Shown here: positions 3-58,586 of the stretch, in pieces | How the letters are laid out: every line of letters starts with the position of its first letter | Position numbering within the stretch: the first letter of the stretch is position 1 | Assembly: GCA_040006915.1 (NCBI GenBank) | Contig: JBDTWD010000002.1 | Span: 158,475-222,474, forward strand | DNA: 64,000 nt | Source: Candidatus Woesebacteria bacterium | Lineage (GTDB): Bacteria > Patescibacteriota > Microgenomatia > UBA1400 > UBA12028 | Direction: 5' to 3' | Made by a program: the position numbers and the translations under genes | The notes under the pieces: generated by a model | What the model saw: only the letters and a program-made list of their open reading frames with translations | Databases searched by the model: none | Told to the model about the DNA's origin: nothing

Positions 3-3000
3 GCTGACAGTGCAGTGACCACCGCAAAACTCAATGATGGCGCAGTCACTAATCCAAAACTCGGTGACGGCAGTGTCTCTACTGGAAAAGTAGCTGATGA
101 AGCAATCACTGAACCCAAATTACTTTCAAGTAATGATGGGACCAATGGCTATGTCCTCTCCTATAATTCCTCCACTGGGGGATTCACATGGATCCCTGGA
201 TCAACTGATTCAGGCTTTAGTGACACTGGAACGTTGATCACTCTTTCAACCACTACTGATGATGTAAATATCGGTGGACTAACCGATCTTGGGAAATTAG
301 CGGTAGTTGGAGACTCAGATGAAACCCAACTGTTAGTTCGAGGAGATTTTTCTCAGACTGTTCCAGTTTTTGATATACAAAATTCGAGCGGTACAAGCTT
401 TTTTAACGTTTCCGCAGCGGGAGTAATTACTATCCCTGGCCTTGACTGTACCACCAATGCCAATGCTGGAACCCTCACTGCTGATGCAAGTGGAGTTATT
501 TCTTGTCAGGATGACGATGGAGGTGGAGCGAGTTCCCCTTTTCAAACAACCAGCAGTGTAGCCAACCTCATCATTTCTACCAATGACACAACTTTAGGAT
601 CAGCGATTGATCTAGCCAAATTTGCAGTCGATGGAGACAGCAACGAAATTCAGTTTTTGATACAAGGAAATGGCACGCAAACTAATTTCCTAGGAGTATT
701 TGAACAAAGCAGCGGCGTGGATGTCTTCACGATTGCCAACAATGGCGATCTGGTGACTGCTGGAGATATTGCTGTGAATGGCGGAGACATTACAACCACG
801 TCCACCACCGCAAGCATTTTTAATAGCAACGCCACCACCATTAACTTTGGTCAGGCAGCGACCACCATGAACATCGGCGTCTTAGGTGGCACTACAACAA
901 TCGCCAGCAACGTGACAATTACGGGTACTTTGACGACGGCATCCAGTAACTTTGCTGCTGATGGAGCGGCCACCTTCAGTCCATCTGGAACCAATGATGT
1001 CACCATGAATTTAGATGCTGATTCGACACTGATTCTCAATGGTGTTCAGTCTGGAACGGCATCAAATGCTTTATGTTTGGATGGTTCAAACAATGTCATC
1101 ACTTGTCAGTCCGCAGTGACCATCACTCTAAAAGATGCCTATGATAATGATCCTAATGGCTCCAACGTAACTATTCCCTTAACCAGTGCAGATGACTCAA
1201 TCATTTTCCAGAATCCAGCGGCGGCGGGGACCGATAGTGGCTACGTCTTCTTGGTTGATCAGCTCAATACCGGAAATGTCGATGGGATTCAAATTGATCA
1301 AGCTGGGACTGGAGATTCTATTCAATTGACAAATGCATCCACAGGCTCATTCCTCAATCTCTCAGCGACGGGCGTTGGCACCACCGCTGACGGGATTAGT
1401 ATCGTAAATACCTCAAGCGGCGTAATCACAGATGCAATTGATGCCTCTGATGCTGAGATCGTGAATGCCCTAAATACTGGCGCCAACACGATTCTTGGAA
1501 CCACTGCAGTGATCGACTTTACGAACTTTGACGTCGATGGTTCAGGGAACATCACCGCATCTGGAAATATCGTTGCCTCAACTAATGAGACCATTAATGG
1601 CATAGATATCACTGCTGGAACAGTTTCAGATGTGGTGAACTTAACGATCAACGGTGGTGGAGACCTCACCATCGGCGCTATTGGGTTAAATGATACAGGC
1701 ACCTCCAACACTGATTCTGGTGCCTCACTAGTCGGAACTTTTGATGAATTTACCAACTCCAATGGCACCACGGTCCAAGGAGTATTAAAAGATTTGGATT
1801 CTGCCATTGGCGCTGGAGCTTCAAAGTGGACTGATGGCGGGGCTATTACCTACTTAACCTCGATCACCGATGACATCGCTGTCGGAGCAACCAATACCTT
1901 GGTGGCTCCCTTCTCTGTCGATGTCTCAGCTAATCTTGTTCGCATTGGGACTGGAGCTACAGCAAATGCACAGCTTGATATGTATGCGTCTGATGGTGAC
2001 ACCGGAAGCTTGGTTTACAACACCTCTGATCAATTTAACTTCACTGGTGGAGACGTACTGATCGGACAAGCATTGACGGTCACTGGGAACACCACGGCAA
2101 ATGGCGATCTGACTGCGAATGGAACATTCACCTTGGGAGATAACGGTGATGCTGGTGCTATTGATACCAACGATTGGGATATTTCGACTACAGGTGTGTT
2201 CACTGGAGTTAGTGGCATTACTACTAATGGTGGCTACACCCAATCAGGTGCTGGCACCAACCTCTTTACTGGAGCGACGACGATCTCTGGTGGAACTACC
2301 CTCTTACGAAACCTTACTGTAAATTCAGGAACCACTCAAAATGTAGCATCAGTCGCCTTTACCTCACCAGTCGACACAAGTGGAACGAACGTCACACAAG
2401 GGCTGAGTATAACTCCCACGATCGGCAACGCGAGTGGTGGAACCAACACTGTCAATGTCTTTAATATCGACGGTACGACCGGGGACGCTCAAGTGACGCT
2501 CAATGCGATTAATGTTGGAGCACTCTCGGGTGGAACTGGAGCATCGGAGATTGCAATCAATGTTGGTACTGGATGGGATAGTCTTCTCAGTGTAAACAGT
2601 AGTACAGTCATAAATGGGAGTGGAGTCTTACAATCAAATGGACTCTCGGGAACATATTCCAATGCCCTCACACTTTCTTCGACCTCCAACGCAATCACGG
2701 CTGGAACCTTAACGATTAATACGGATGCCTTCACTGATCTAACCGGCAATGGCTTAGCTATCTCCACAGGATCACTAGGAGTAAATCTGACGACGAGCGG
2801 TGGAAGTGGATCAACTTCTAGTAACTCAGGACTTGAAGTCAGTAGTGCAGGCCTCACCCTTCTGAAAGGCTGTGCCCAAGATGAAATCCTGTCCTGGGAT
2901 GATGCAGGATCGGTCTGGATATGTAATAGCGTCACAGGCGCAGGTGGTGGAACTGGAGACATTACTGCTGTCGGTGACGTGACGAGTGGCGCAGCGTTCA

Positions 3001-6000
3001 CCCAAACTGCAGGAGCTGATGGCACGACTTTGTATTTTGAAGGAAGTACCACAGATGGAAATGAAATTGCGTTGACGACCGCTGATCCAGGCGCAGATAT
3101 CACGGTCACTATTCCAAATATCGCTGGTACGCTTGCTTCTCTAGCTGGAACCCAATCGTTCACCGGAGCAAAAACCTTCTCGGCTGCCTCTATTTTTGAT
3201 GGAACTATAACAGCAAACACCGATACAGACTTCGCGCTCGCTGGAAGTGAAAACATCACTCTCACCAATGCGTCAGCTTCTACCGATCAATTGGCTTTGG
3301 CCGTCTCAGGTGTCACCACCACTGGTGTGAATGGTTTATCGGTTGCCTTCACTCAAGCAGATGATGTAGACGCAACCGATAGTAACGCAGCGGTGAATGT
3401 CGCCCTCACTTCCTCATCTGGAGATGCTGATACTTTATACGGATTAAAATTTGCAGACTTCACTGCTGGAGCAGCAACAGAAAATGCCATTCACTTTGGG
3501 ACCGGATTTGATAATTTGTTTGATATCGAAGGCAATACTGCAGATGGGAATGACACGCTCGTCACCTACGCTGAACCAACTGGATCGCGCTCTATTATTA
3601 TCCCTGATGACTCAGGAACAATTTGTTTAAGTTCAGGCAACTGTGCCGGTGGAGCTGGAGGCAGTAAATGGACTGATGCCGGTGCGGTCACCTATTTAAC
3701 GGCAACCAGTGATGATCTTGCTGTTGGTGGCACGACATTGGCCTCACCATTCTCTATTGATGTCTCAGCCAACTTAGTTCGAATCGGAACTGGAGCAACG
3801 GCAAATGCCCAACTGGATATGTATGCGTCTGATGGTGATACCGGAAGTTTGGTTTACACCACCTCTGATCAATTCAGCTTCACTGGAGGAGATGTCCTCG
3901 TCAATCAGGCTTTAACTGCTAACGGAACCTTTACTCTTGGCGATAACGGTGACACTGGCGCTATCGATACGAGTGACTGGGATATTTCTACTACAGGCGT
4001 GCTTACCGGAGTTAGTGGCATTACCACGAATGGTGGCTATACCCAGTCTGGAGCAACGGCCAACACTCTCACGGGTGCAACAACCATTTCGGGCGGCACA
4101 ACTCTCTCACGCACCTTAGCTGCTGATGCAACTGCCCAAAATGTTGCATCTGTGACCTTTACTACACCTGCTGACACCACAGGAACAAATCTAAACCAAG
4201 GAATCAGTATTACCCCGACTATCGGCAACGCGACCGCTGGAACAAACACCGCCAACATATTCAATATCGATGCACTGACCGGAGATGCACAAGTGACCTT
4301 AAACGCCGTCAATATTGGTGCATTAACAGGCACAGGAGCTACTGAGACTGCGATCAATATCGGCACTGGATGGGACAATGTCCTCTCGGTTGGTGGTACT
4401 CCAGTGATCAACGGCTCAGGTCAACTGGTGTCTACGCAAATTACTGGCACACTGTTCTCAACCAACTCGGATTCTGGCAGTAGCACTGTCGTTCAAGGTG
4501 ATACCCTAGCAATCAATGGTGGAACAAATGGAATTAATACCGCGCTCTCTGGAGACACGTACACTTTGAATTTTGATTCTACCGAAGTGGGGACCACTAC
4601 TTGGAATGCTGGTGGAACTGATCCTACCTGGACCTTTAATACTTCAGGAGGAACAGATCCAACCTTGGCATTTGCCAATAATCAAATCACTGTCGGAAAT
4701 GCTGCGACATTAACTGCTACAGCAGTAACTACCTTTAATTGTACGAATTGTATAAATTTTGATGACATCTCAGATACATTGGTTCTCGATGCTGCGACCA
4801 CCATCACCAGAACTTCAACAACGACCAGTGAAGATTCACTTGCCTTTTCTCTCATCAATAATGGAGGCACAGCAGGAACAGATCGAGCGTTCGTCATTTC
4901 AAACGGACTCTCAGGTAACTCAAGTGGTGACGTCACCACTGAGTCACTTCTTACTCTCGATCAAGCAGACAGTACAGCCGGAGGAAATACCGCAGTAACG
5001 GATGGACTTTTAATCACGAACTCAGGGGGCTCAACCTTTACGAATGCCATAACCATTGGAAGTGGCTCACAAGCAATTTCCACTGGTCTAAATATCGCTT
5101 CTACTGGAGTGACGACTGATATTTCGTTGCAAAATGGCGAAACGATTGATAATAACGTTGATGGCACCATTCAACTCACCGCAGCAAACACCGCACTCTC
5201 TGGAGATTTGGCAATTAGTGGTGGGAATATCACCACAGCCTTCACTGCAGATTCGACTGTTACAGTAACCGGAACCACCACTGCCAATGGTTCGTTAGTA
5301 GCGAACGGGATCTTCACATTAGGTGATAACGGTGACACTGGAGCGATCAATACATCAGATTGGGATATTAGTGCTACAGGAGATATGTCAGGGATTGGAG
5401 CAATCACCGCTGATGGCGCAATCGCCTTTACCCCAGGATCAACCAGTGACATCACCTTTACTTTGGATAGTGATTCAACCCTAATACTCGCGGGAGTCCA
5501 AACTGGAACTGCCAGTAACGGACTATGTTTGGATAGTAGTAATAACGTCATCACTTGTAGTACAGCTGGCAGCACCACTCTCCAGAGTGCATATAACAGT
5601 GATGTCGACGGCTCTGACACAATCATTGCCTTGACGACAGCTGATGACTCTCTGATCTTTCGAAACCCAGCAAGCTCTGGAACCGATAGCACATACATTT
5701 TAACCTTGGATCAACTCGCCAATAGTAGTGTTGGTGGTTTAAATATCACGCAAGCTGGAACAGGAGCTGGAATTGCGATGACATTCTCGAACGCTGGCAC
5801 CACCACTGATGGGCTCATCATCAACAATAGTGCTGGAACTGTCACTGACGCCATTGACGTCTCAGACGCTACTGGCTTTACCAATGCTATCAATGTTGGA
5901 GCCAATACCATTCTCGGTACCACTGCTGCCATAGACCTGACGAATTTTGATGTCGCAGGAACCGGAAATATCACTACCGCAACCGGAACTGGAATCGACT

Positions 6001-9000
6001 GTAACGCAGCCAGCTGCAACTTAAAAGTTGGCGTCACCAACGCTACGACGATCGATGTTGGGACTACCGCAGCAACGGCAATAAATATTGGCGCTGGTGG
6101 AGCGCTGGCACGCAATATCGCTATCGGGACTGGAACAGGCGCCGATACCATCAATATTGGTACCGGAGCTACTGGCGCTGATGCCATCACTATTGGAAAT
6201 GCTGCTTCCACAACTGCCCTAGCCTTCAACTCAGGAACCAGCGCTCAAACATTTACCTCACAAGTCCAAACAGGCACTACGACTACATCTGGATTTGTCT
6301 TCGACGCGACGGCAATCAATACCGGAACTGGTCTGTATCTGACTTCAGACAGTATCACTACCGGAAAATTAGCACAGATTGCTACGACTGGGAACACATT
6401 AACGACCGGTACACTCCTCGATGTTAATTCAACCTCAACAGCCGTGACAGGATCTTCAACGGGGCTGCTTGGATATTTGAACTGGAACCCTGGGAGTGCG
6501 ACTACTGCCACTGGTGACCTCTTTAGAATCAATATTGGGAGCAATGGGAACGTTGGAAATCTCTTTAATTTGACCGACAATGGCACCAGTCTTTTCTCAG
6601 TCTCTGAAACACAAATCACCAATGCCCTTCCTACCTCCTTTACTGCCGCTGGTGATGTATCATTTGCCAATGACATCCAATTTACGAATCAAGTCGCAAG
6701 CGCCATCAAGAGCAAAGCTCCTCTCACTATCGAAGCTGGAGAGAGTTTTGAAAGTAATGATTTAACACTCCATCCCTACAATGCAGGCAGTGTCGTCATT
6801 GATGGCTCTACCACTCCAACGACCAGTACCACAGGACTTTTGAACATCAATGCGAATGCGGGAAATGCTGCAGTGATCGCATCAAACATCAATTTGATTC
6901 AAGACAATGGAGCAACCGCCGCAGTCGATGCTATAGGCCAACAGATCAACCTCACTGCAAATGATGCTGATGGAGATGTCTTCGGTTTGAAGATTGCTGC
7001 AGCTGCAACAACAAACGCCACTACCGGATCATACGAAGCTGGTATCACTATCGATAATGCTGAAGACACCGCTGCTTCAATGACCGACGGAATTTTAATT
7101 ACTTCATCTGGAATAAACAACGGTATCACCGACGCGATTGACGTGAGTGCGGCAAACATAAATAACGCTATCAATCTTGGTGCCAATTTTGAGCTGTTCG
7201 ATGGTATCAGAATGTTTGAGGGAGCGACAGGAACCCTCACTATTGAGGATACTTCCGGAAATGACATCGCAACCTTCGTCGACGGTGGCACCACAGGAAG
7301 CTTGACGGTCACCAATACCATCTCGGCTCAAGGAAACTCTATCGGATTAAATAACGATGCCAGCGCGAACAACGTTTTGGCCTTTGGCACTGGACCAGGA
7401 GCTGCGACTGGAGATCTGTATTGGGGTGATAAGTTGCTCTGTACCGCAGCATCAGCAAACTGTGGCTGGGGTGCAGCAGGAGCCGGTATGACGAGCTTTA
7501 CAGCCGCTGGCGACTCTGGATCAAACCAAACAATTTCAGATGGCAATACCTTTGCCATCAGTGGGGGTACGAACGGAATTGATACCGTCGGTGTCAACAC
7601 AGATATCATCAGACTCGATCTCGACACCACTGAGATCAGCGGCACTACTTCTTCAGGAGCAAGTACCTTTAGTGATGGCACCCAAGCGAGTATCGCCTGG
7701 ACCTTTAATACCTCTGGGGCTACAGACCCTATCCTGACTATGGCCAACAGCTCAATCACATTAGGAAATGCAGCTACGATCGTCTCAGATCAGGCCACTC
7801 TCGCTGCCTTTAATACGACGACAACAGATTTGAGTATTGGTGGTGCGGCAACCACATTTAATCTCGCTGCTGGCGGCGCTCTCGCTCGTGCAATCAATCT
7901 CGGAACGGGGACTGGAGTGGATACGATCAATGTCGGCACAGGTGGTACTGGAGCAGATGTTATCAATATCGGAAGTACGAATGCTGGAAATGTATCCGTA
8001 AAATCAAATGCCGTCTTGAATCTGACTGGCGGAGCCAACTCTGTAATTGATTTTCCAAACTTTGATGTCGCTACCACTGGAAATGTCACCACTGCGACTG
8101 GAACAGGAATTGACTGTAATGCGGCAAGTTGTAACTTAAAAGTTGGTGCAACAAACGCAACAACAGTAGACATCGGTACGACAGCAGCGACGGCAATTAA
8201 TATTGGTGCTGGTGGAGCTTTAGCACGTAACATCGCGATTGGAACTGGTACGGGAGCAGATGTCATTAATATCGGTACCGGAGCAACAGGTGCTGATACG
8301 ATCACCATTGGAAACAGTGCTTCGACCACTTCACTAGCCTTCAACTCGGGAACTGGATCACAAACCTTTACTTCTCAAGATGCCACTGGGACGACTACGA
8401 GTTCTGCTTTTGTCTTTACTGACAACGCTCTGAGCACTGGCACAGGCATGTATTTGAATTCAAGTACCATCACGACTGGAAAGCTCGCACAATTTACGAC
8501 AACGGGAAGCACTCTTACGAGCGGATCGTTACTGGATCTATCCTCTGCTGCGACTTCGATTACCAATGGTTCAAGTATCGCAAATGGCGGAACCTTTGCC
8601 GGAAGTCTTTTAAATATCAGTGCCACGGGTGCTATCTCTAGCTTTGCTGGAAACTTAGGTACTGTCGACTGGTCTCCAGGCTCAGCCACCAATGCGACAG
8701 GAAATCTCTTTACCATTAATATCGGAACCAACGGAACAACCTCTGGAGATTTGTTCCAAGTCCAAGACTCTGGATCTGATTTGTTTGCCGTCAATGAGAG
8801 TGCTATCACTTCTTCTATCCCCCATAACTTTACTGCAGCTGGTGACCTCTCAGTCGCGTACGATCTGTCCTTTACCAACCAAACGGCCAGCACAATCAAG
8901 ACTCTCGGACCACTCACTATCGATGCTGGAGAAAGCTTTGAAAGTAACAACTTGACGCTCCACACCTACAACTCAGGGAAAATAATTGCTGACGGTGGAT

Positions 9001-10889
9001 TTTCGTTCAACGAACAGCAAGCACTTACAGATAGCACCACACCTGATGTTGGTGGGGCATCGTACTTCTTAGAAAACAACAGTACGAACAGAGTTGTCAC
9101 AAACTTCTTGAATGGAACTGCAGGACAAATTATCTATATCGAGATTGGAACCGCAGCTAACTTTGATCTTGCCTGTACAGCCTCAAAGATCAGTTGTGGA
9201 AGTACGACAATCACTGCCATGGCGACAGGTGACACGATTGCTCTTCTCTATGATGGAACCACTTGGAATCTTTTAAGTTGGATGGATCAATCTGCTAACA
9301 ATAGTGACAATACTGATGGTGTCGACTTGGCCGAATTCTTCCCAAGTTCAGACACCCTTGAAGCCGGAGATCTTATCAGTATCGATGGATCCAACCCTGT
9401 AACTATCAAAAAAGGCACTGAGACTGATGGACAAAAAGTAGTTGGTATCATCTCTACCCAACCAGGTCTCACTCTGGGACAAGAAGCACCAACATCCTAC
9501 AAAGTAGCTTTGGCCGGTCGAGTTCCAGTGAAGATTGATCCAAACTCACCAGAGATCCATATCGGTGACTTCATCGGCGCCACTGGAGTTCCAGGTAAAG
9601 CCAAGAAAGTCGCCGGTGGCTACACAGTTGGTCGAGCTTTAGAGAACTGGCAACCAGGATCAGGAAAAGACACAGTGACTGTTTTTGTTAGTTCCATTTG
9701 GATCGACCCAGATATGGCCTTGAGCACCAGTGGTGATATCTCTATTGCCCAAACTGTTGATGGACAGATGAATACCTCATATAACCTGGTCGATCCACGG
9801 GGGATCATGAACCGCATCGGGGAATTTGCAGATGCCGTGATCGCAAACTTGCGCGTCGGAAAGTTAAGTTCCACCGAGATTGCTACCAGCAACTTAAAGA
9901 TCAATGGCAAAACCGTCCAAGAGATTGTCTCTGAAGCTGTCACCCAAGCGACTGCAGGTGCGACTCTGGCCACCAACGTCGTCACCAAAGATGAAGCGGG
10001 CAACGCCACTATCTCTGGAAACTTGACTGCACATGACGCTACTATCTCTGGGACACTCTATGCAGATCGTATTAGCGGACTCGATGGAATTACTTCTCTC
10101 CTGGGTAGTCAAAATGCCTCACTCTCTGCTTTAATCTCTCAGTTTAATAACTGGAATAGCTCCGCTTCTGCAGTCCTCTCGGCTGATGCTGTCTTTGCCA
10201 ATGAATACTTAAACGTCCAAGGAACAGCAAGTATCACCGATGCCATGATAAACCACACTCTGATCGTCGGTGGCAGCTTGGCTATGGATCACAACTCAAT
10301 TAACTTACTTTCTGACACCGAAGATACTCTCTATCTGCAAGCAACCACTTCTGGGAAACTGGATCTCTTGGCTGGAACAGTGACCTTATCTGCTGACGGT
10401 GGACTGTTTGTAAACACTGACGCAGTGTTTGCCAAAGATCTCACCGTCAAAGAAGACTTGATCGCACACTCGCTCAAGAGTGATGGACAGGTTCTCGGTA
10501 TCCAACTTGCGAGTGAAAGTGGAAAACTAACCGTCAGTGACGCCAACAGTACTGAAGTCGCGAGTATCGATGCCTCTGGATCAGCAACCTTTAGTAAATT
10601 GGCTCTGACCCACACGGCAACCAGCTCAGCCAATGTCAACCTCGACGCTTCTGCAGGAAAAGGCACATTGCCATCTGGTCAAACAGAGCTCGTAATCTAT
10701 ACGAACCAAGTAACCGAAGATTCTTTGATCTATATCACGCCGAACAGTAGTACCGAAAACAAAGTTCTCTATGTCAAATCCAAGGTTGCCAAGGATGAAA
10801 ATGATCCAGAATCTGTGGGTAGCTTCACTATCGGTGTCGATAGTAGTATTAGTAACGACGTAAAACTTAACTGGTGGATCATAAACTAA
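3..10889 (+). CDS. Giant fibrous surface/adhesin-like protein, 5'-partial (more than 3624 aa in window). Thr/Gly/Ser/Asn/Ala-rich beta-helix-like repeats, internal 100-250-aa duplicated modules, and a distinct globular C-terminal module (aa ~3100-3624).
   Basis: Uninterrupted ORF from the window edge; the frame is open at nt 3-14, so the gene continues upstream. Composition is dominated by T/G/S/N/A with recurring GTGxDxIN, NxGxG and LxVxG motifs. Long modules occur twice, for example LVRIGTGATANAQLDMYASDGDTGSLVY and GIDCNAASCNLKVG. The terminal ~500 aa lose the repeats and contain motifs such as DLAEFFPSSDTLEAGDLISIDG, VALAGRVPVKIDP and GDFIGATGVPGKA, reminiscent of fibre-terminal domains. 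Confidence 0.7.
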   Translation, partial: ADSAVTTAKLNDGAVTNPKLGDGSVSTGKVADEAITEPKLLSSNDGTNGYVLSYNSSTGGFTWIPGSTDSGFSDTGTLITLSTTTDDVNIGGLTDLGKLAVVGDSDETQLLVRGDFSQTVPVFDIQNSSGTSFFNVSAAGVITIPGLDCTTNANAGTLTADASGVISCQDDDGGGASSPFQTTSSVANLIISTNDTTLGSAIDLAKFAVDGDSNEIQFLIQGNGTQTNFLGVFEQSSGVDVFTIANNGDLVTAGDIAVNGGDITTTSTTASIFNSNATTINFGQAATTMNIGVLGGTTTIASNVTITGTLTTASSNFAADGAATFSPSGTNDVTMNLDADSTLILNGVQSGTASNALCLDGSNNVITCQSAVTITLKDAYDNDPNGSNVTIPLTSADDSIIFQNPAAAGTDSGYVFLVDQLNTGNVDGIQIDQAGTGDSIQLTNASTGSFLNLSATGVGTTADGISIVNTSSGVITDAIDASDAEIVNALNTGANTILGTTAVIDFTNFDVDGSGNITASGNIVASTNETINGIDITAGTVSDVVNLTINGGGDLTIGAIGLNDTGTSNTDSGASLVGTFDEFTNSNGTTVQGVLKDLDSAIGAGASKWTDGGAITYLTSITDDIAVGATNTLVAPFSVDVSANLVRIGTGATANAQLDMYASDGDTGSLVYNTSDQFNFTGGDVLIGQALTVTGNTTANGDLTANGTFTLGDNGDAGAIDTNDWDISTTGVFTGVSGITTNGGYTQSGAGTNLFTGATTISGGTTLLRNLTVNSGTTQNVASVAFTSPVDTSGTNVTQGLSITPTIGNASGGTNTVNVFNIDGTTGDAQVTLNAINVGALSGGTGASEIAINVGTGWDSLLSVNSSTVINGSGVLQSNGLSGTYSNALTLSSTSNAITAGTLTINTDAFTDLTGNGLAISTGSLGVNLTTSGGSGSTSSNSGLEVSSAGLTLLKGCAQDEILSWDDAGSVWICNSVTGAGGGTGDITAVGDVTSGAAFTQTAGADGTTLYFEGSTTDGNEIALTTADPGADITVTIPNIAGTLASLAGTQSFTGAKTFSAASIFDGTITANTDTDFALAGSENITLTNASASTDQLALAVSGVTTTGVNGLSVAFTQADDVDATDSNAAVNVALTSSSGDADTLYGLKFADFTAGAATENAIHFGTGFDNLFDIEGNTADGNDTLVTYAEPTGSRSIIIPDDSGTICLSSGNCAGGAGGSKWTDAGAVTYLTATSDDLAVGGTTLASPFSIDVSANLVRIGTGATANAQLDMYASDGDTGSLVYTTSDQFSFTGGDVLVNQALTANGTFTLGDNGDTGAIDTSDWDISTTGVLTGVSGITTNGGYTQSGATANTLTGATTISGGTTLSRTLAADATAQNVASVTFTTPADTTGTNLNQGISITPTIGNATAGTNTANIFNIDALTGDAQVTLNAVNIGALTGTGATETAINIGTGWDNVLSVGGTPVINGSGQLVSTQITGTLFSTNSDSGSSTVVQGDTLAINGGTNGINTALSGDTYTLNFDSTEVGTTTWNAGGTDPTWTFNTSGGTDPTLAFANNQITVGNAATLTATAVTTFNCTNCINFDDISDTLVLDAATTITRTSTTTSEDSLAFSLINNGGTAGTDRAFVISNGLSGNSSGDVTTESLLTLDQADSTAGGNTAVTDGLLITNSGGSTFTNAITIGSGSQAISTGLNIASTGVTTDISLQNGETIDNNVDGTIQLTAANTALSGDLAISGGNITTAFTADSTVTVTGTTTANGSLVANGIFTLGDNGDTGAINTSDWDISATGDMSGIGAITADGAIAFTPGSTSDITFTLDSDSTLILAGVQTGTASNGLCLDSSNNVITCSTAGSTTLQSAYNSDVDGSDTIIALTTADDSLIFRNPASSGTDSTYILTLDQLANSSVGGLNITQAGTGAGIAMTFSNAGTTTDGLIINNSAGTVTDAIDVSDATGFTNAINVGANTILGTTAAIDLTNFDVAGTGNITTATGTGIDCNAASCNLKVGVTNATTIDVGTTAATAINIGAGGALARNIAIGTGTGADTINIGTGATGADAITIGNAASTTALAFNSGTSAQTFTSQVQTGTTTTSGFVFDATAINTGTGLYLTSDSITTGKLAQIATTGNTLTTGTLLDVNSTSTAVTGSSTGLLGYLNWNPGSATTATGDLFRINIGSNGNVGNLFNLTDNGTSLFSVSETQITNALPTSFTAAGDVSFANDIQFTNQVASAIKSKAPLTIEAGESFESNDLTLHPYNAGSVVIDGSTTPTTSTTGLLNINANAGNAAVIASNINLIQDNGATAAVDAIGQQINLTANDADGDVFGLKIAAAATTNATTGSYEAGITIDNAEDTAASMTDGILITSSGINNGITDAIDVSAANINNAINLGANFELFDGIRMFEGATGTLTIEDTSGNDIATFVDGGTTGSLTVTNTISAQGNSIGLNNDASANNVLAFGTGPGAATGDLYWGDKLLCTAASANCGWGAAGAGMTSFTAAGDSGSNQTISDGNTFAISGGTNGIDTVGVNTDIIRLDLDTTEISGTTSSGASTFSDGTQASIAWTFNTSGATDPILTMANSSITLGNAATIVSDQATLAAFNTTTTDLSIGGAATTFNLAAGGALARAINLGTGTGVDTINVGTGGTGADVINIGSTNAGNVSVKSNAVLNLTGGANSVIDFPNFDVATTGNVTTATGTGIDCNAASCNLKVGATNATTVDIGTTAATAINIGAGGALARNIAIGTGTGADVINIGTGATGADTITIGNSASTTSLAFNSGTGSQTFTSQDATGTTTSSAFVFTDNALSTGTGMYLNSSTITTGKLAQFTTTGSTLTSGSLLDLSSAATSITNGSSIANGGTFAGSLLNISATGAISSFAGNLGTVDWSPGSATNATGNLFTINIGTNGTTSGDLFQVQDSGSDLFAVNESAITSSIPHNFTAAGDLSVAYDLSFTNQTASTIKTLGPLTIDAGESFESNNLTLHTYNSGKIIADGGFSFNEQQALTDSTTPDVGGASYFLENNSTNRVVTNFLNGTAGQIIYIEIGTAANFDLACTASKISCGSTTITAMATGDTIALLYDGTTWNLLSWMDQSANNSDNTDGVDLAEFFPSSDTLEAGDLISIDGSNPVTIKKGTETDGQKVVGIISTQPGLTLGQEAPTSYKVALAGRVPVKIDPNSPEIHIGDFIGATGVPGKAKKVAGGYTVGRALENWQPGSGKDTVTVFVSSIWIDPDMALSTSGDISIAQTVDGQMNTSYNLVDPRGIMNRIGEFADAVIANLRVGKLSSTEIATSNLKINGKTVQEIVSEAVTQATAGATLATNVVTKDEAGNATISGNLTAHDATISGTLYADRISGLDGITSLLGSQNASLSALISQFNNWNSSASAVLSADAVFANEYLNVQGTASITDAMINHTLIVGGSLAMDHNSINLLSDTEDTLYLQATTSGKLDLLAGTVTLSADGGLFVNTDAVFAKDLTVKEDLIAHSLKSDGQVLGIQLASESGKLTVSDANSTEVASIDASGSATFSKLALTHTATSSANVNLDASAGKGTLPSGQTELVIYTNQVTEDSLIYITPNSSTENKVLYVKSKVAKDENDPESVGSFTIGVDSSISNDVKLNWWIIN
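1022..8375 (+). repeat. Intragenic long-range duplications in the giant gene. Module pairs: ~1022-1565 vs ~5476-5990, ~1822-2595 vs ~3667-4395, ~5941-6265 vs ~8059-8375. Roughly 75-85% nucleotide identity, with protein motifs conserved.
   Basis: The translated segments align almost residue for residue, e.g. SKWTDGGAITYL...GTGWDSLLSV vs SKWTDAGAVTYL...GTGWDNVLSV, and NFDVAGTGNITTATGTGIDCNAASCNLKVG...FTSQ twice. Nucleotide differences are mostly synonymous. Confidence 0.8.
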
Positions 10890-13800
10890 TGAGAATGAGA
10901 AAACATCGACTTACCATCAAGAAAAATCAACGTACTCTAATAATAGTGGGTGGCATCGTCGCGTTGCTTCTCACCGTGGGCCTGATAGGGATTTTCATTC
11001 ATTCCAGAAAAAAAACTGAACCAAAAGCTGCTCCTGCGATACAAACCAAAACTCCATCGGTCGATGAAAAACCAGAGCTGTATTATCTGTCCATCAAAGA
11101 AGTCACTGAAATGTTTGGAGCGAAAATAGCTAAAGATGCCAAAGGCCAAACGCGCACTATGAAGACGATGGCTGGAAAAATGGAAGAATTTGTTCCTTAT
11201 GTCGTCGTTCCTGATGGAAATACCACGAATGTCTATTATCGTACGGATAAAGGAATCGAACGCTATAGCTTTTCCCCGTCGACTATCGATGTGGCTTTAT
11301 CTGAAAAATCTCAAGACAGCAAGGATTTTGAAATACAGTCTACGTCTACTCCAATGTTTCAATATAAAGATGGTGAAGCCTGGTTGGATTATGAAGAAAA
11401 ATCTGCAGTCAGCATTCGAGTTGATAAAGGCCCTGATGTCGCAACTATTACTCAAAAAACTAAAGCCGGAGCTAACGACGCCAAAGTTACCTGGAAATTT
11501 GGCATCCAAGATCAACGTCTCATTTTAAAAAACACCTTTGAGTTAAGTGATACAAAGCATACGAACCGCCTACTCTGGACTATCTCTTTTCCCAAGGATA
11601 AAAAAATTATCAGTAGCGATGATGAAGCCACCATGCACCAGACAGAAAACATGGCGAAGAAGCGCATTAAATTGGGGAATGTGAATATCGGTTGGGATGA
11701 TTTTAACGAACCCACTAAAGCAGCGTTGTCTGCAGCGAATCAAACTCTCATCGTGCTCTTCTATGAAGATGGGATCGAAGGTAACTTGACCATTGACCCG
11801 ACTTTGACGACTACTGTGAATGCTGCCGCTTCTGAGATTGATATCGAAGTGACTGACGGAACACGCTGGTGGTGTTTCGGGAAAAACCCCCAGGAGACTG
11901 CTGCCACCAGATCTCTCTTTCAACCGACGCGCATGTTCCATTCGAGCATTTCAGCTCCCACTAATTGTACGACTGGTGGAGATGATTTTTTGCCAAATAA
12001 CGCGGGATCTTTACATGACTCTCCACTCTTTTCGGGAACCAACGGCTTTACCAGCACTTCAGCGATTACGGTAAACCTCCTAGAAACCACCGCTACCAGG
12101 GCGCGTGTACAAACCTATAAAGACAATACTCTTGATAGCCGAGGATTATTTACTGTGTATCCCAACGGCTATGGATATTTTAACTATGCTCTAGGAACTG
12201 CAAACAGCCTCGACCAAAGCTACACCTTCTCTGAGCATTTCAAATCAGCTAATGCCCAGACTGAACTCTTTGATAGTACCAACCGAACCTATGTGATCGC
12301 AGATACTTCAAATACTAACTATGCTGGAGTCTTGGGCATAGGGTATCAGATTCTTGGTATCCCTCTCATGCCAGATCTTGCAAATGACAGCCCCAATGAC
12401 CTAGTACAGTACTGGAATTCGAACACCACCACGACGAGCCCAGCTCAAGGAACAAAAACGAGTTCCGCTTGGACAGGTTTGCTTGACCTTTCTGAATATC
12501 GAGCGTCAAATTTCACTAAAGATGTGAAGCTTGGAGATTACCGTCTTCCTGATGATGTTTCCGACGGTTTAACAAATTCTGTTCTTTGGGATGATGCTGG
12601 CGAACAAGCCAAGTACTTTACTGGTTTTGAGGGGGCAGATACCGACTTATGTGGTGGTGGGGATGGATTCACCACAGGCTCTTGCAACGGCGATGACACG
12701 GCAGTGGGTAATGATAAATCTAATGCCTACAGTGGTACCTATGCTGCACACTTTGATGGAGGCGCGACGACCACTGATGTCGCCTATGCACAGCTCACGA
12801 TGGATGCAAATCCTCGGCAAACGGTTCGCTTTATGTTAAAGGTAAACACCGAGACACTGGGAACGAACCAGGAAATGACTATTGTTCGTTTCATTGATGG
12901 GTCGAACAATACGAACGGAAGTCTCGCCTTTAGACAAAATGCTTCGAATCAATTAGTGCTCTGTGTCACCCCACAGCGAGGTGGAACAGGCGGTACACAA
13001 GTGTGTGGTACTACTGTCCTCTCGACCGGAACTTGGTACGCAGTAGAATTTACGAATACCTCCGGTATTACCAGCGGTACTTCCTATGGAAATCATGTAC
13101 AAGTATTTTTAAATGGCGTGGTTCAAGCGACAAGCGTACAAAACGTGGCAGCGGCTGTTACCACGACAGCTATGCGTATGGGATTAGTCGTCACCTCAAC
13201 TGCTAATAACGATATTTATATCGACAATGTAGCAATCGACTATACAGAAACCGGTATCCCTGGTTTTAACGCAGCAGAAGGTGCCTATACGCTCCAACAT
13301 GCGAAATGGGGATCAGATCTCTCTGTCGATCTAGATAGAGGAGGAAAAATTGCTAGCGGCTCTGCTTTCAAAATTCGTGGCTGGCAGTCACAAAATGATC
13401 CTACAAGCGTAAAGCTTGAGAATACACAACTCATCAATGGCACAGACTTTAATGCCGATGTTCTCCCTTTCTCAGAATCTTGGGTTAACGATTCTGATGG
13501 CACGTGTGGGACTGGTGGATGGCAAAAGCTTGCTAACGGTGGTGATCTGACCAACTCGAGTGAGTACCTGATGCGAACCGATAATGATTATAACTTCAAT
13601 AATGGTGGCAGCGGCAATAACTGTACTTTTGGTGACTCTACCACTGATGCGCTGTACTTTGGACGCACGGATCAATTTTCGGGATTAAACGTACTGCTAT
13701 CCACGGTTGGAACTGATAATTCTCTTCTTCATGTCACCTGGGAGTACTGTTCAGTCAATACTGACGTTGCCACGGCTTGCGATACGTGGAGCACACTGTC

Positions 13801-16800
13801 AGTCACATCATCACCTACAGGAGTTTCAGATTTTGTCGATAACGGATCTATCAGCTTTACTCCACCCTCCCAGTGGATTAGATCACGCGAGAACTCTGGT
13901 CGTGAAGCCTTATATTTTGTGAGGGCTCGGGTAACATCAGCTGGATATGGTACCTATCCAGTCGAACAAAAGATCACCACCGATATTCTGGCCATGCAGT
14001 ATCAAGGGACACTAACTCAAGATGATCAAACATTTACATTTTCGACCACTTCCCCAGTCGGAGTCTGGAAAATTGATGAAGGGAATGGGACGACAATTGG
14101 AGATAGTACTGGCCTTGGGAACAGTCTCACTATCAATGGCGCCGTATGGAGAGGAGATGGACAAAGAAATAACTCCAGTACCAAACGCGCCACCTATCTT
14201 CATTTTGATGGCAGCAATGACTTTGCCTCAAGGGCTAATGATACTGATTTTAATCCGGGGGGTGAAGCGTTCACTCTGACTGGCTGGTTCCGTCATCCCT
14301 TAGCAGTCTCAGGGACGGATACAATCCTCGCCCACTATGGGACGGCAGGATATAAAGTCTATATGAACTCTTCTGGCAATATTTGTTTTGGAATCGATGA
14401 TGATAGTTCATGGGGCCCCGATGATAGTGCCTGTACCACTACCACCTATACAGATAGCACCTGGCATCATTTTGCTGCTGTGAGAAATGGCGTGTTAGGA
14501 CAAATCGGAAGTCAAAGTAACCTTATGCTCTATATCGATGGAAAATTTCAAGCATCAGATGGAACGATCAGTGCGAAAGGGTCGCTAGATACGAGTAGTA
14601 CTCTTTACTTTGGAATTGATTCTGATGGCAGTAGTAATCCTTGGGATGGTGAAATTGATGAAGTGAATTTCTATCGTTATGCGCTGACTGCAGCCCAAGT
14701 TTTAGCAGATATTCCTGATCCTTCTTCTGCTTTGGTGGGTAACAATCCTACCGATCCCCTGACAAATGGACTCGTGGGATGGTGGAAAATGGATGAGAGC
14801 ATAGGGAATCTCTGTAGTGGAGGAACCAATGACACTTGTGATTCTTCTGGGAATGGATACGATGCTGCCTGGGGTGGGAATGCGACGAGTAGCGCAGTGG
14901 CAAAATTTGGATACTCAACGATATACGATGGCTCCTCAACGAATGCTGCTGGGGATGTACTGGACTTTGAGCGCACACAACCATTCTCGCTGGGTACTTG
15001 GATCAAAACAACCACAGATGGGGCTCAATCGCTCATCACCAAGCAAGACGACAGTTCCCCTTTCTCTGGCTACAATCTCCAGTTTGGATCGAGTGGCATA
15101 CTCTATTTTCAACTTGTTAATACCTTCACGACGAACAATATCCAAGTTCAATCGACAAATGATCTCAGTTACAGTGATGGAAATTGGCATTACGTGGCTG
15201 CTACCTATGATGGCTCTTCAAAAGGCGTTGGAGTACGTTTGTATTTTGATGGGACAGAAATCCCAGTTACGGTATCGATGGATAATCTCTCCGCTACCAC
15301 AGTCAATGCTATTCCCCTTAATTTTGGTTCCCGAAATAGTAGTACCCAAAAATTTACAGGGAATCTAGATGAAGCGCGCATCTACAATCGGATCATCTCT
15401 CCTGCTGAGGTACGAGCTCTCTACTCCTATGCTCCTGGACCAATGGGATATTGGAAATTTGATGAAGCTAGCGGTACAAGCGCCGCAGATTCCAGTGGAA
15501 ACAACTATAGTGCCACGATTACAGATGCCGGAACAGTTGGTGGGTTTGAACCTGGTATCTATGGGAATACCTACAACATGAAAGGGTTTAACGGAAGTGG
15601 CGCAGACTGGATGCCAATTTCAGGTACAATAAATCTTGGGAGTGTGAATACGATCTCATTTTGGATTAACGGAAATCAATTGAGTTCCACCGGACATACA
15701 ATAGGAAGTAGCCGAACCGTTACAGGAGGCGCCGGAGCTGATCCCCAAGGCTATATGGCCTTTATCGATGATGTGAATCTGTATTCACGTCAAAGTATTA
15801 ATCCAGGGGCAGTCAGCGTGGCTCACGGAATGGTCGCCGGTACTTGGTATCACATAGAAGTAGTTCGCGATGGCACCTCCGTCAAGTTTTATAAAAATGG
15901 TGTTCAGTTAGGAACGACTCAAACCTACGGTGCTAGTAAACCATATCTTTTGTACAACCTGACAAATTATGATAGCAGTTTAAGTACAGCAGACTTTCCT
16001 GTTGACGGAAAACTCGATGACGTACGCGTTTATAACTACGCACGAACCCCGCAGCAAGTTGTAGAAGACATGAATGCTGGACATCCTTCTGGCGGTTCTC
16101 CAATAGCAACCCAACTGCTTTTTTGGAGAATGGATGAGATGTCAGGAACGACTATTAATAACTCTGGATATGGAGGTAGTACATATAATGGTACGGCAAC
16201 AGGGACAGTCTGGAACTCAGCAGCAGCGTGCGTAGGACCAAGCCCTTGTTTGTATCTAGATACAGATGCCGATACAGTGAGCGCCGGTGCCGTGACGGTC
16301 ATCAATGGTGCAAGTGCATTTACTTTCAGTACTTGGTTAAAGCCTGCCCTCGTTTCAACAAATTCCATGATTTTTTCTAAGGCTGACGTCAGTACAGATC
16401 GTTCCTTCCAAATTAAAACGGACAATACAACAGCTTCAGAGATCAAAGTTATGGTTCCTGTTATTTCATCCGATACTTCTACGTATTTTGTCACAAGCGG
16501 TTTTGGATTATCAACGACAGGAGCACAACTGACAGTGGTATACGATGGAACCCAATCAAATGCGAATAGAGTGAAGGTGTATAAGAATGGAAAAATCGTT
16601 GCTGGATCTATAAGCGGGACACTCCCCTCTACCATTACAACCAGTAGTGAGAATCTTAAACTTGGGAAAGGTGATGATACTGGATCAAACGCTTTGCACG
16701 CACTCTATGATAACGTTAAATTTTATACAGGAGCCCTCACCCCCGATCAAGTCATTATGGATTACAACGCAGGAGCGGCAGCAAATTTCGGGACAGGTCC

Positions 16801-36174: not shown

Positions 36175-36341
36175 ATTATCGTCGTTTCCTTTTTTCTAAA
36201 GAAGAGACGCGTTCTTTCTGACGTGTTCTCTTTCCTTCTTCTTGTCTGTCGTAAACAGAAACCGCCGAGAACAAATGAGCGTTCTCTATAATCCAATCAA
36301 TAATTTTTTTCATTCCGTTGTTTTTCTCTTTACTCATAATG

Positions 36342-36412
36342 TGGACTGTGGGGGAATCGAACCCCCGTTCTATCAATGCGAATGATATGTACTACCACTG
36401 TACGAACAGCCC
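36342..36412 (-). tRNA. tRNA-Ala (anticodon CGC), 71 nt, no encoded CCA.
   Basis: The reverse complement folds as a cloverleaf: acceptor GGGCTGT/ACAGTCC with a G3:U70 pair (the Ala identity element), D-stem GTAC/GTAC, anticodon stem TATCA/TGATA with loop TTCGCAT, T-arm GGGGG-TTCGATT-CCCCC. Confidence 0.75.
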
Positions 36413-36814: not shown

Positions 36815-36818
36815 AGTG

Positions 36819-36891
36819 TGGACCCGAGGGGAATCGAACCCCTTTCTCTTCAATGCCATTGAAGAATAATAAGCCGGTATACTACGGGCCC
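36819..36891 (-). tRNA. tRNA-Ala (anticodon GGC), 73 nt, no encoded CCA.
   Basis: Reverse complement: acceptor GGGCCCG/CGGGTCC with G3:U70, anticodon stem CTTCA/TGAAG with loop ATGGCAT, T-arm AGGGG-TTCGATT-CCCCT. The D-stem is weak (3 bp). Confidence 0.65.
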
Positions 36892-51411: not shown

Positions 51412-51450
51412 ATATGATCACATCATAACGCAGAGAGCAGAGAATGAGAA

Positions 51451-52833: not shown

Positions 52834-52868
52834 AGGGCAGTATGTCTATTAACGCTAGTTAGTAGCGT

Positions 52869-54956: not shown

Positions 54957-54970
54957 AGTTTTCCTTAAAG

Positions 54971-56800: not shown

Positions 56801-57143
56801 AGCTACCCTTTCGCTTGACATTCCTATCAAAAATTGATAGGTTGATACGCGAGAAGCCCGTCCTTAGGAAATAACATGTAAGGTCAGGATTCTTAAACAT
56901 AAAGCATTGCTACACGTGTCTTTCCAAGGTCAGCGGTAGTAATGCTTTTTTTGTGCGTTCTGAGCCTAGTATAACACCACCTCTTTTCATGTCAACCTAT
57001 AGTAATTTATCTTCGTTTTTTAGAACGTCCTGTAGTATAATATTTAAACAAAATACCCTTGAAAACACAGAGTTATCCACATGAAAATAGAGATATTCAT
57101 TCTATGGTGAAAACGTGTGTTCAGGGTGGAAAACGAAGATACT

Positions 57144-58532: not shown

Positions 58533-58537
58533 AATCG

Positions 58538-58577
58538 CAGTCTATCTGACGATTTTGGAGATTAAAAGAGGAAGAAT
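58538..58577 (-). promoter_or_regulatory. Copy 1 of an identical 40-nt element in the 5' leader of radA. The second copy at 62028-62067 precedes the 1138-aa gene.
   Basis: cagtctatctgacgattttggagattaaaagaggaagaat on the plus strand occurs identically at both sites. Each copy sits 5-25 nt upstream of the ATG of a minus-strand gene. Confidence 0.6.
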
Positions 58578-58586
58578 ATATTCCTA

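Follow-up and report, generated by a model that had tools for sequence, protein, structure and literature searches.

The intramolecular chaperone of gp12, an 854-aa virion protein of phage phi29 (MEROPS G2; PF11962; 3GQH, 3SUC), is missing from virions (PMC9863714), and the C-terminus of mature gp12* is residue 691 (PMC6542822). The S74 chaperones (PF13884) of endosialidases, T5 pb1 and eukaryotic MyRF work along similar lines in that a C-terminal domain enforces the trimer and then cuts itself off. However, the S74 fold is unrelated, being helical and elongated as opposed to the beta-stranded body of the phi29-type chaperone (PMC4690869), and its catalytic motif is a Ser-Lys dyad. A cellular precedent for self-cleaving trimeric fibres is the set of MAT (mosaic adhesive trimer) fibres of Bdellovibrio bacteriovorus, which have an autoproteolytic intramolecular chaperone at their end, the self-cleavage of which was shown experimentally, and which serve in the recognition of other bacteria (PMC10769870).

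We analysed a 64,000-nucleotide stretch of DNA (the window) from a probable Patescibacteria (CPR) bacterium, at the start of which lies a giant open reading frame (positions 3..10889 on the + strand, as are all features given below) that codes for a putative extracellular fibre. This fibre resembles the MATs, which are cellular bacterial fibres of phage tail-fibre ancestry that combine mosaic bodies with varied beta-sandwich tips (PMC10769870). There are also several differences. The MATs are ~1,000 aa long and start with a signal peptide, after which comes a conserved N-terminal beta-rich domain of ~130 aa (PMC10769870), whereas the giant protein is four times that length and probably starts with a MerR-type helix-turn-helix (HTH) and a transmembrane (TM) helix. 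Furthermore, the MATs carry an S74 chaperone (S-D-x-x-x-K) or none, whereas in the giant protein the chaperone domain is G2-like and an S74 motif is missing.

Extent and body of the giant reading frame

Frame 3 is open between window position 3 and the stop codon at 10887-10889, which gives 3,628 codons, and it continues upstream beyond the window edge, as expected from the initial annotation, which had called the gene giant and 5'-truncated. A run of this length without a stop in DNA of ~47% GC cannot be chance. Independent assemblies are colinear with the protein, namely P0177 over aa 24-519 (52%), P0183 over aa 1613-1993 (81.5%), L066 over aa 2867-3628 (42%) and L019 over aa 2797-3628 (36.5%). 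The whole protein gave no match to Pfam, PHROGs or NCBIfam, and it took short segments or profiles as queries for the Pfam domain matches described below to emerge. For the C-terminal 628 aa, the best database match showed only 33% identity along most of its length.

The protein is rich in Thr, Gly and Asn as annotated (T 16.1, G 12.5, A 11.4, S 10.1 and N 8.2%), and all of the motifs that had been quoted from it are present. The body (aa 1-3000) abounds in Thr, Gly, Ala, Ser and Asn, whereas Lys, Arg and Glu each make up ~1.2% or less of it. All 20 cysteines of the protein fall into 10 pairs with a spacing of 3-19 residues, and every one lies before aa 3066; aa 3108-3628 contain no Cys, so that the pairs occur only upstream of the cut predicted below.

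Comparison of the body with itself by chunked blastp revealed four pairs of large duplicated modules with 48-76% protein identity and no more than 80% DNA identity. Specifically, module A occurs at aa 319-518 (957..1556) and, 58% identical, at aa 1803-1991 (5409-5975). Both copies contain an LCLDxSNNVITC Cys loop. The quoted motif LCLDGSNNVITC is at aa 357, and its paralogous copy LCLDSSNNVITC at aa 1841. Module B occurs at aa 594-906 (1782..2720) and aa 1208-1505 (3624-4517) with 62-76% identity, and module C at aa 1483-1581 (4449..4745) and aa 2497-2606 (7491-7820) with 48% identity. Module D occurs at aa 1945-2268 (5835..6806) and aa 2648-2998 (7944-8996) with 53-73% identity; each copy has a GIDCNAASCN loop (aa 1997 and aa 2702), the second copy immediately precedes the C-terminal cassette, and both L066 and L019 have kept the tail of the module. 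The body is an acidic mosaic of family-specific, diverged duplicated modules, which ten short disulfide loops would stiffen. The annotated term 'repetitive' holds in the sense of these diverged pairs, but not in the sense of DNA tandem repeats, none of which were found in the gene. The C-terminal module was correctly described as non-repetitive, as it has no internal paralogue and the last ~600 aa differ from the body in composition.

A modular protein with internal duplications, and a C-terminal cassette with phage relatives, could also be expected if the reading frame were an assembly chimera or if it were a prophage tail fibre gene, and we regard this pair of explanations as highly improbable. 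A chimera formed by repeat collapse, which the initial annotation had named as a finding that would overturn it, is contradicted by the lack of near-identical repeats, as the internal repeats are too diverged at the DNA level for collapse to be likely, and by the junctions, which are colinear with the independent assemblies.

The C-terminal cassette

The cassette consists, in order, of a Phage_depo_C-like beta-sandwich, a 19-residue linker, an autochaperone and a ~390-residue extension that combines a fibre core with a terminal beta-sandwich. On sequence and on predicted structure, it is related to the tail-appendage maturation cassette of phage phi29. The similarity to gp12 includes the D-x-x-E at the start of the domain, which aligns with the cleavage site, and the placement of the domain C-terminal to the fibre body, right after a small beta-rich domain. 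In contrast to the phage virion protein, the giant protein is cellular, >3,600 aa long and presumably membrane-anchored, and a conserved 390-aa extension comes after its chaperone domain, which often occurs in the family as 2-3 tandem copies.

The first element, a small beta-sandwich with one Cys pair, spans aa 3019-3088 (9057..9266). Phage_depo_C (PF25692) matches aa 2995-3107 taken alone (113 aa) with 25.0 bits and an E value of 2.7e-5, which is just at the cutoff of 25, whereas in longer queries the scores of 19.4 and 20.7 bits are under it. The same family matches five of seven homologues (best 1.1e-6), and a Phage_depo_C-like domain stands directly before the D-x-A-E motif in P0036, P0108, P0007, P0170, P0067, L066 and L019. 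In phage depolymerases, Phage_depo_C comes after a catalytic beta-helix according to its Pfam description, and gp12 itself digests wall teichoic acid (PMC9863714). This raises the alternative that the giant protein works as a tailspike-like enzyme, with a stretch of the body forming a glycan- or cell-wall-degrading beta-helix, of the kind known from gp12 and phage depolymerases, that attacks or remodels the host envelope. Such a role would also be in line with the strong conservation in L066, L019 and P0183 of the segment before the beta-sandwich (...AGESFESNNLTL.TYNSG...). However, no catalytic beta-helix is recognisable upstream: aa 1-3000 searched in ten 333-aa pieces gave no Pfam match even at E 0.1, the body matched no PDB sequence, and no catalytic motif was found. 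We therefore consider an enzymatic body unlikely.

The second element, aa 3108-3240 (9324..9722), is an intramolecular chaperone of the phi29 gp12 type (MEROPS G2-like), as shown by homology to the gp12 autochaperone in both sequence and fold. Such a chaperone was among the folds that the initial annotation had proposed to look for. A profile built from 21 domains and run against PDB matches gp12 across its cleavage site (6qz9_A, E 5.5e-4, aa 689-743) and also matches 3gqh_A (E 6.7e-4). The AlphaFold2 model of the domain (pLDDT 87) has the fold of the gp12 C-terminal fragment, and gp12 is the best match by sequence profile as well as by fold. The same fold is found in phage cement or decoration proteins (HFTV1, Sf11, XM1, TW1 and Pam3; PF09956, PF22758, PF23982), but these bind capsids, do not cleave and have no D-x-A-E start, and their identity to aa 3108-3240 is 10-18% as compared to 29% for the gp12 domain. 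Peptidase_G2 (PF11962) reaches 15.4 bits (E 0.012), below its gathering cutoff of 25; it also matches nine of 21 homologous domains, all under threshold (best 1.2e-4). The Lys/Gly segment that had been pointed out, GDFIGATGVPGKAKKVAGGYTVGRALENW, is present at aa 3188, but it lies inside this gp12-like domain and is neither a linker nor a tip.

The start of the domain aligns with the gp12 cleavage site, D3108-L-A-E3111 corresponding to D692-F-A-E695. The cleaved fragment 3GQH begins at the Asp that aligns with D3108, and the 'pre-mature' entry 3SUC has Gln at the position that aligns with E3111. By analogy with gp12, autocatalytic cleavage is predicted between V3107 and D3108 (codons at 9321..9326), with E3111 (9333-9335), which aligns with gp12 E695, as the candidate catalytic Glu. 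The D, A and E of the motif are invariant in all 21 aligned domains, and D-x-A-E is found in 305 of 322 domain copies. No PF13884 (S74) match was obtained with the giant protein, and the S-D-x-x-x-K motif was found only in the homologues P0010 and P0022.

The autochaperone is not the C-terminal end of the precursor, as 388 residues follow it (aa 3241-3628), whereas the domain is the C-terminal end in P0023, P0024 and the L121 reading frame. The post-chaperone extension, aa 3241-3543 (9723..10631), is predicted to be fibrous and is common to P0001-3, P0006, P0008-12 and P0022, with a conserved core shared by homologues at aa 3398-3494 (10194-10484). Its AlphaFold2 monomer model is of low confidence, with pLDDT <50 at aa 3350-3530, the stretch that the initial annotation had read as having the pattern of triple-beta-helix fibre tips. 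A profile of the extension matched no PDB sequence, and a tblastn search of GenBank phages with the last 544 aa returned no match.

The protein then ends in a terminal beta-sandwich, aa 3544-3628 (10632..10886, ending ...DVKLNWWIIN), and the last ~85 residues are modelled by AlphaFold2 as a monomer with pLDDT of about 90. A domain HMM matches aa 3548-3628 and is found in 54 of 207 collected family proteins. Foldseek similarity to phage fibre and depolymerase C-termini is weak and not significant (6ct8, E 0.044; 7w1c, E 0.1, prob 0.99). Three of 12 homologues match Pfam K1-lyase_C (PF24146; best 4.5e-6), whereas the giant protein itself has no match. Among depolymerase C-termini (PF25692; PF24146; 7W1C), aa 3019-3088 lie at the Phage_depo_C threshold and aa 3544-3628 bear a weak likeness to K1 lyase and to tail-fibre C-termini, the K1-lyase_C similarity being confined to homologues. 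A trimeric autotransporter adhesin was considered and rejected, as Pfam showed no YadA-type anchor and only a Hia Trp-ring match with E 0.52; in the AlphaFold2 model the C-terminus is a soluble beta-sandwich and not a YadA-type beta-barrel.

The extension is conserved and occurs in P0011 without any chaperone domain, which suggests, from sequence comparison, that the post-chaperone region has a function of its own. These observations, together with a terminal beta-sandwich weakly like fibre and depolymerase C-termini and with the common occurrence of tandem D-x-A-E domains, are what would be expected if the D-x-A-E domain were a permanent in-line trimerisation clamp that does not cleave, with the 390-residue extension as the receptor-binding tip. 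This is essentially the view of the initial annotation, and we hold it to be possible although doubtful. Several observations argue against it. The nearest relative by sequence and by structure is the cleaving gp12 and not the cement proteins, and the near-invariant D-x-A-E sits exactly at the N-terminal boundary of the domain, where it marks the cut in gp12. Moreover, in P0010 and P0022 this same extension is preceded by an S74 chaperone whose S-x4-K motif is intact, indicating that two unrelated self-cleaving domains can occupy one position.

N-terminus, gene neighbourhood and family

Neither scans of genome contigs nor an exact 41-mer scan of metagenome contigs found the window DNA or the sequence upstream of the giant reading frame. 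The best N-terminal homologue (P0177, 52% identical) has an N-terminal MerR HTH followed by a TM helix, which suggests that ~390 residues comprising a MerR-type HTH and a membrane anchor are missing upstream. The full protein is then most likely a membrane-anchored extracellular fibre of ~4,000 residues. Full-length P0049 and P0174 likewise combine MerR HTHs with C-terminal D-x-A-E domains, and homologues have an N-terminal signal peptide or TM anchor. At present, the relatives are annotated either as 'MerR family transcriptional regulator' or as 'beta strand repeat-containing protein'.

Immediately downstream is a gene (10889..18241) for a 2,450-aa protein with an N-terminal TM anchor and six Laminin_G_3 domains, the ATG of which overlaps the stop of the giant gene (TAATG). 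This is followed by a third gene of the cluster (18244..22908), coding for 1,554 aa with a TM anchor, six Laminin_G_3 domains and a weak DUF2341 match below the Pfam cutoff. In L066, too, the gene next to the closest relative, on its downstream side, codes for a LamG protein with a TM anchor. Overall, the proteins of the downstream operon have a TM anchor or a signal peptide, together with LamG, PKD or Ig domains. The Cys-pair loops, the anchors and signal peptides of homologues and these operon partners together indicate that the giant protein is probably extracellular. Of the two arguments that had been advanced for this location, paired Cys and NxS/T sequons, the first turned out to be stronger than claimed, since all of the Cys are paired, whereas the second did not hold. 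The 78 sequons observed compare with 76.8 +/- 7.4 in 500 composition-preserving shuffles, and being at compositional expectation they are uninformative on location. Glycosylation was rejected for the same lack of enrichment.

The neighbourhood also bears on the prophage explanation introduced above, which we rejected on the basis of the cellular gene context. The neighbours that were scanned code for LamG, TPR and PKD proteins, Obg, an ABC transporter, a histidine kinase and tRNAs, with no head, tail or integrase genes seen among them, and N-terminal homologues have a MerR HTH and TM anchor rather than a virion attachment domain. In addition, a strict motif for the gp12-like domain was found in no IMG/VR contigs as compared to at least 120 metagenome contigs.

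The gp12-like domain family, which comprises at least 31,000 protein clusters at 50% identity, is mainly cellular and lies outside the current Pfam threshold. The domain alone gave just three matches in a word-index search, and literature searches found no description of it in CPR giant proteins. Only one confirmed phage tail fibre with the domain was found, in L122, a contig whose match to a major head PHROG (E 1e-43) marks it as genuinely phage. The fibre carries the D-x-A-E domain (profile E 5e-36) with 34% identity to aa 3108-3217 in an alignment that begins at the Asp, and the domain is followed by the extension core (E 1.3e-12). At the sequence level this shows that the same cassette, as domain plus extension core, is present in a phage tail fibre. 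Along with the Phage_depo_C-like domain and the gp12-type chaperone, it supports the annotated likeness of the C-terminus to phage tail fibres.

Proposed assembly and its meaning

We lean, if only slightly, towards the reading that the giant protein is a homotrimeric surface adhesin that folds from its C-terminal cassette and cuts itself at V3107|D3108. The assembly that we infer, in its trimerisation, cleavage, cassette fate and adhesin role, would proceed as follows. Following export, three chains would come together through their C-terminal cassettes, which would set the register and nucleate folding of the long fibre, starting at its C-terminal end and moving to the N-terminus. With the trimer in place, the V3107-D3108 bond would be cut autocatalytically with E3111 as catalytic residue, in the same manner as gp12 S691-D692. 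The ~520-residue cassette might then be shed or kept non-covalently, and the small beta-sandwich would become the C-terminus of the mature fibre. Given that the autochaperone is cut off and absent from the virion in phi29, aa 3019-3088 may be the true distal tip.

Some features fit this scheme less well. Most of the top-scoring family members carry 2-3 tandem D-x-A-E domains, a poor fit to a simple 'cut once and discard' process, and the region after the chaperone is 390 aa long here as compared to 163 aa for the whole gp12 fragment. The Peptidase_G2 score below threshold, a fold in common with the non-cleaving cement proteins and a body of no recognisable fold or family also speak against the scheme. 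Release of the gp12 chaperone reportedly requires ATP. The domain of the giant protein would act outside the cell, where ATP is unavailable and ATP-dependent release cannot operate, and this counts against a gp12-like release here.

A more far-reaching idea, which we rate as improbable, is that the fibre forms the outer arm, ~3,600 aa long, of a MerR-type DNA-binding protein that is tethered in the membrane, in the order HTH, TM helix and extracellular fibre, and would act as a contact sensor that passes host-surface binding or tension on to transcription. If true, the distal 520 residues would, owing to the self-cleaving gp12-like joint, be a detachable, non-covalently held tip.

There are few clues as to how CPR/Patescibacteria, with their very small genomes, attach to other cells, and giant surface proteins are one of them. 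A gp12-type chaperone for which the cut can be predicted precisely (V3107|D3108, E3111) offers a testable assembly mechanism for such giant proteins, and the gp12-like domain constitutes a large unrecognised family that the current Pfam threshold misses.

Extent and make-up of the giant protein

The giant open reading frame lies on the + strand (frame 3) and occupies positions 3-10889 of the window, closing with a TAA stop at 10887-10889. On its 5' side the frame of 3,628 codons continues past the window, so that the initial annotation of a 5'-truncated Thr/Gly/Asn-rich gene holds. The whole protein contains 16.1% T, 12.5% G, 11.4% A, 10.1% S and 8.2% N, while its body (aa 1-3000, counted from the first codon in the window) has 7.5% D with K, R and E each at about 1.2% or less. 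The description of this body as repetitive needs amending, as no tandem DNA repeats were found in the reading frame and the repetition consists of four large, diverged module pairs (aa 319-518 with 1803-1991, aa 594-906 with 1208-1505, aa 1483-1581 with 2497-2606, and aa 1945-2268 with 2648-2998) that are 48-76% identical as protein. Because these pairs are at most 80% identical as DNA, repeat collapse during assembly is unlikely. The junction between the body and the C-terminal module is also colinear with the independent assemblies L066 (42% identity over 834 aa) and L019, with L066 having a TM-anchored LamG gene next downstream, as in the window.

The motifs singled out in the initial annotation are located at aa 3188, 357, 1997 and 2702, with the loop at aa 357 having a paralogue at aa 1841. 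Its observation of paired cysteines is borne out, as all 20 Cys fall into 10 pairs with a spacing of 3-19 residues, all upstream of aa 3066. Its sequon argument for an extracellular location fails, since the 78 NxS/T sequons equal the number expected from shuffled sequences (76.8 +/- 7.4) and are therefore uninformative. The body has no match among PDB sequences or in Pfam, and a depolymerase-like, enzymatic body is a possible reading that has no support. For most of aa 316-2995, other family members contain local counterparts (32-61% identical) in shuffled positions, and the body is a mosaic.

A phi29 gp12-like chaperone domain and its flanks

Among homologues of the C-terminal 628 aa, the stretch DLAE...GD.V...VGIIST.PG...ALAGRVPVK...GD.LTSS..PG.AMKA...G.ALE is strongly conserved. 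In an alignment of 21 copies of this D-x-A-E domain (aa 3108-3240), residues D3108, A3110, E3111, G3148, S3151, A3169, G3172, G3188, D3189, G3198 and A3212 are invariant. Among PDB sequences, the profile of this alignment matches the phi29 pre-neck appendage gp12 (6qz9_A, E 5.5e-4) across the gp12 maturation site. It also matches the cleaved gp12 C-terminal fragment 3gqh_A, which starts exactly at the aligned Asp (DFAEYFES...), and the 'pre-mature' gp12 3suc, where Gln takes the place of the aligned Glu. In work by Xiang et al. from 2009, gp12 reportedly trimerises first and is then cleaved, with ATP required for release. AlphaFold2 models aa 3085-3245 confidently (pLDDT 87, pTM 0.78). The match to Pfam Peptidase_G2 stays under its threshold (15.4 bits vs 25), and 9 of the 21 aligned copies give such a sub-threshold match. 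Mature phi29 gp12* ends at residue 691 (PMC6542822), virions are without the gp12 chaperone (PMC9863714), and the body of this chaperone is beta-stranded, in contrast to S74 chaperones (PMC4690869). The phage ancestry proposed for the C-terminal module thus stands, but the segment highlighted at aa 3188 belongs to a predicted self-cleaving chaperone.

Immediately upstream of this domain, aa 3019-3088 scanned alone match Pfam Phage_depo_C at threshold (25.0 bits, E 2.7e-5), as do 5 of 7 homologues. A Phage_depo_C-like domain lies ~10-20 residues ahead of D-x-A-E in P0036, P0108, P0007, P0170 and P0067, which are the five homologues in the alignment of this beta-sandwich that carry the D-x-A-E domain, and in L066 and L019. 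In P0005 (ENA, on a contig of 3 kb), the N-terminal part of a leucyl-tRNA synthetase is fused in frame to a Phage_depo_C-like domain 72% identical to that of the giant protein; this fusion is probably a chimera that arose from assembly or gene calling in its data set.

Downstream, a 390-aa extension (aa 3241-3628) is common to about ten Patescibacteria-type proteins. Only its last ~85 residues are modelled confidently by AlphaFold2, as a beta-sandwich. The fold matches of this sandwich (R2 pyocin fibre, K1 lyase, AP22 gp53 and K64-1 depolymerase) are weak, all at E 0.04 or above, and are consistently C-terminal domains of phage fibres and depolymerases; Pfam K1-lyase_C is matched in 3 of 12 homologues. 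At aa 3350-3530, for which a triple beta-helix had been proposed, pLDDT is < 50, and the extension region that includes this stretch has no match among PDB sequences. P0010 and P0022 have an S74 chaperone in place of the G2-like one, followed by the extension, and P0011 has the extension without any chaperone.

Family size, tandem copies and a phage relative

With a cutoff of E <= 1e-3, the D-x-A-E profile matches 31,120 representative proteins (50% clusters), and with E <= 1e-10 it still matches 25,935. Many of these matches are giant proteins, reaching 6,814 aa, in which the domain lies close to the C-terminus. Among 174 collected proteins, ranked by summed score and thus favouring multi-copy proteins, 145 have two copies and five have three, with the D-x-A-E motif present in 305 of 322 copies. 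Many family members, among them P0004, P0029, P0132 and P0043, carry two or three tandem domains ~40-170 residues apart with intact motifs, and a simple scheme in which the protein is cut once and the piece discarded does not account for the product of several serial predicted self-cleavage sites. The main alternative is that the D-x-A-E domain is a clamp that is not cleaved and the extension is a permanent tip, a reading that stays alive because the extension occurs independently of the domain and the domain occurs in tandem.

A strict DNA pattern (ALAGRVPVK-x10-GD) was found in at least 120 metagenome contigs and in no IMG/VR viral contig, while a looser pattern gave nine viral contigs, two of which truly encode the domain. 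Judged by these patterns, the cassette is far commoner in non-viral than in viral contigs. One of the two encoding contigs, the uncultivated virus L122 (IMGVR_UViG_3300025839_000054), is a genuine phage, since a major head protein gene (PHROG, E 1e-43) is on the same contig as the fibre. Its 884-aa tail fibre (L122:10856-13510, with PHROG tail-fibre matches) carries a D-x-A-E domain 34% identical to aa 3108-3217, aligned from the Asp onward, followed by the extension core (E 1.3e-12). The cassette therefore occurs both in tail fibres of phages and in giant fibres of cells.

Genomic setting and membrane anchor

At TAATG (10887-10891), the stop of the giant gene and the ATG that opens the following gene overlap, which suggests an operon with translational coupling; ORF calling instead places that start at an upstream GTG at 10874. 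The next two genes code for proteins of 2,450 and 1,554 aa, both of which have six Laminin_G_3 domains and are TM-anchored at the N-terminus. Their C-terminal tails (18142-18241 and 22809-22908) are near-identical, ...Q(V/I)QKLY(S/N)(D/Q)(D/N)ASVRFGP(V/S)TGSP-stop. Within the same surface-protein cluster is a 694-aa protein (22965-25049), a candidate membrane enzyme acting on neighbouring surface proteins, whose multi-TM N-terminal ~520 aa have no Pfam family match and precede C-terminal TPR repeats. It is followed by a protein that has a signal peptide as well as Ig and PKD domains and ends in ...ISVIASP-stop (29815-29839), and the tails of these LamG and PKD/Ig proteins may be a shared C-terminal sorting or processing signal of the cluster.

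Farther downstream the window encodes Obg, a histidine kinase and an ABC transporter, and it carries two minus-strand tRNA-Ala genes (anticodons CGC and GGC; 36341-36412 and 36818-36891, ~400 nt between). Four large minus-strand ORFs at 48922-62003 (829, 695, 619 and 1,138 aa) may be further uncharacterised envelope proteins; those of 829, 695 and 1,138 aa had no Pfam match at 1e-5. No phage genes were seen among the window ORFs scanned, and the region around the giant gene is cellular. Named homologues belong to Patescibacteria (Uhrbacteria, Amesbacteria, Gottesmanbacteria, 'Patescibacteria group'), except the partial homologues P0178 and P0181 (38-44% identical), which are labelled Acidobacteriota; on these homologues, an assignment of the window to Patescibacteria is probable.

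The best homologue of aa 1-1000, P0177 (52% identical), aligns its aa 415-938 with aa 24-519 and has a MerR-type HTH at its N-terminus, with a hydrophobic helix at ~aa 175-197; from this offset and N-terminus, ~390 residues are probably absent from the window ORF. P0177, P0180, P0184, P0186, P0049 and P0174 carry one MerR-type HTH domain or two at the N-terminus, ahead of a TM helix, an arrangement that joins a cytoplasmic DNA-binding domain to an extracellular fibre several thousand residues long; such giants are named 'MerR family DNA-binding transcriptional regulator' at NCBI. In P0049 and P0174, a single chain has MerR HTHs at its N-terminal end and D-x-A-E domains at its C-terminal end. 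Other family giants start with a signal peptide or TM helix, then an 'ISYQGRL' domain.

The best-supported reading is that the giant protein would be a membrane-anchored, probably homotrimeric surface fibre whose C-terminal cassette serves as an intramolecular chaperone and, after chaperoning, would be cut at V3107|D3108. Fibres matured by an intramolecular chaperone are an already known kind, the closest cellular analogue being the Bdellovibrio MAT fibre family, where self-cleavage via S74 and a role in prey recognition have been reported, the former demonstrated (PMC10769870). What is new here is a G2-like domain in a cellular giant together with an unusual post-chaperone extension, and probably also, as judged from the homologues, a MerR-HTH membrane anchor.
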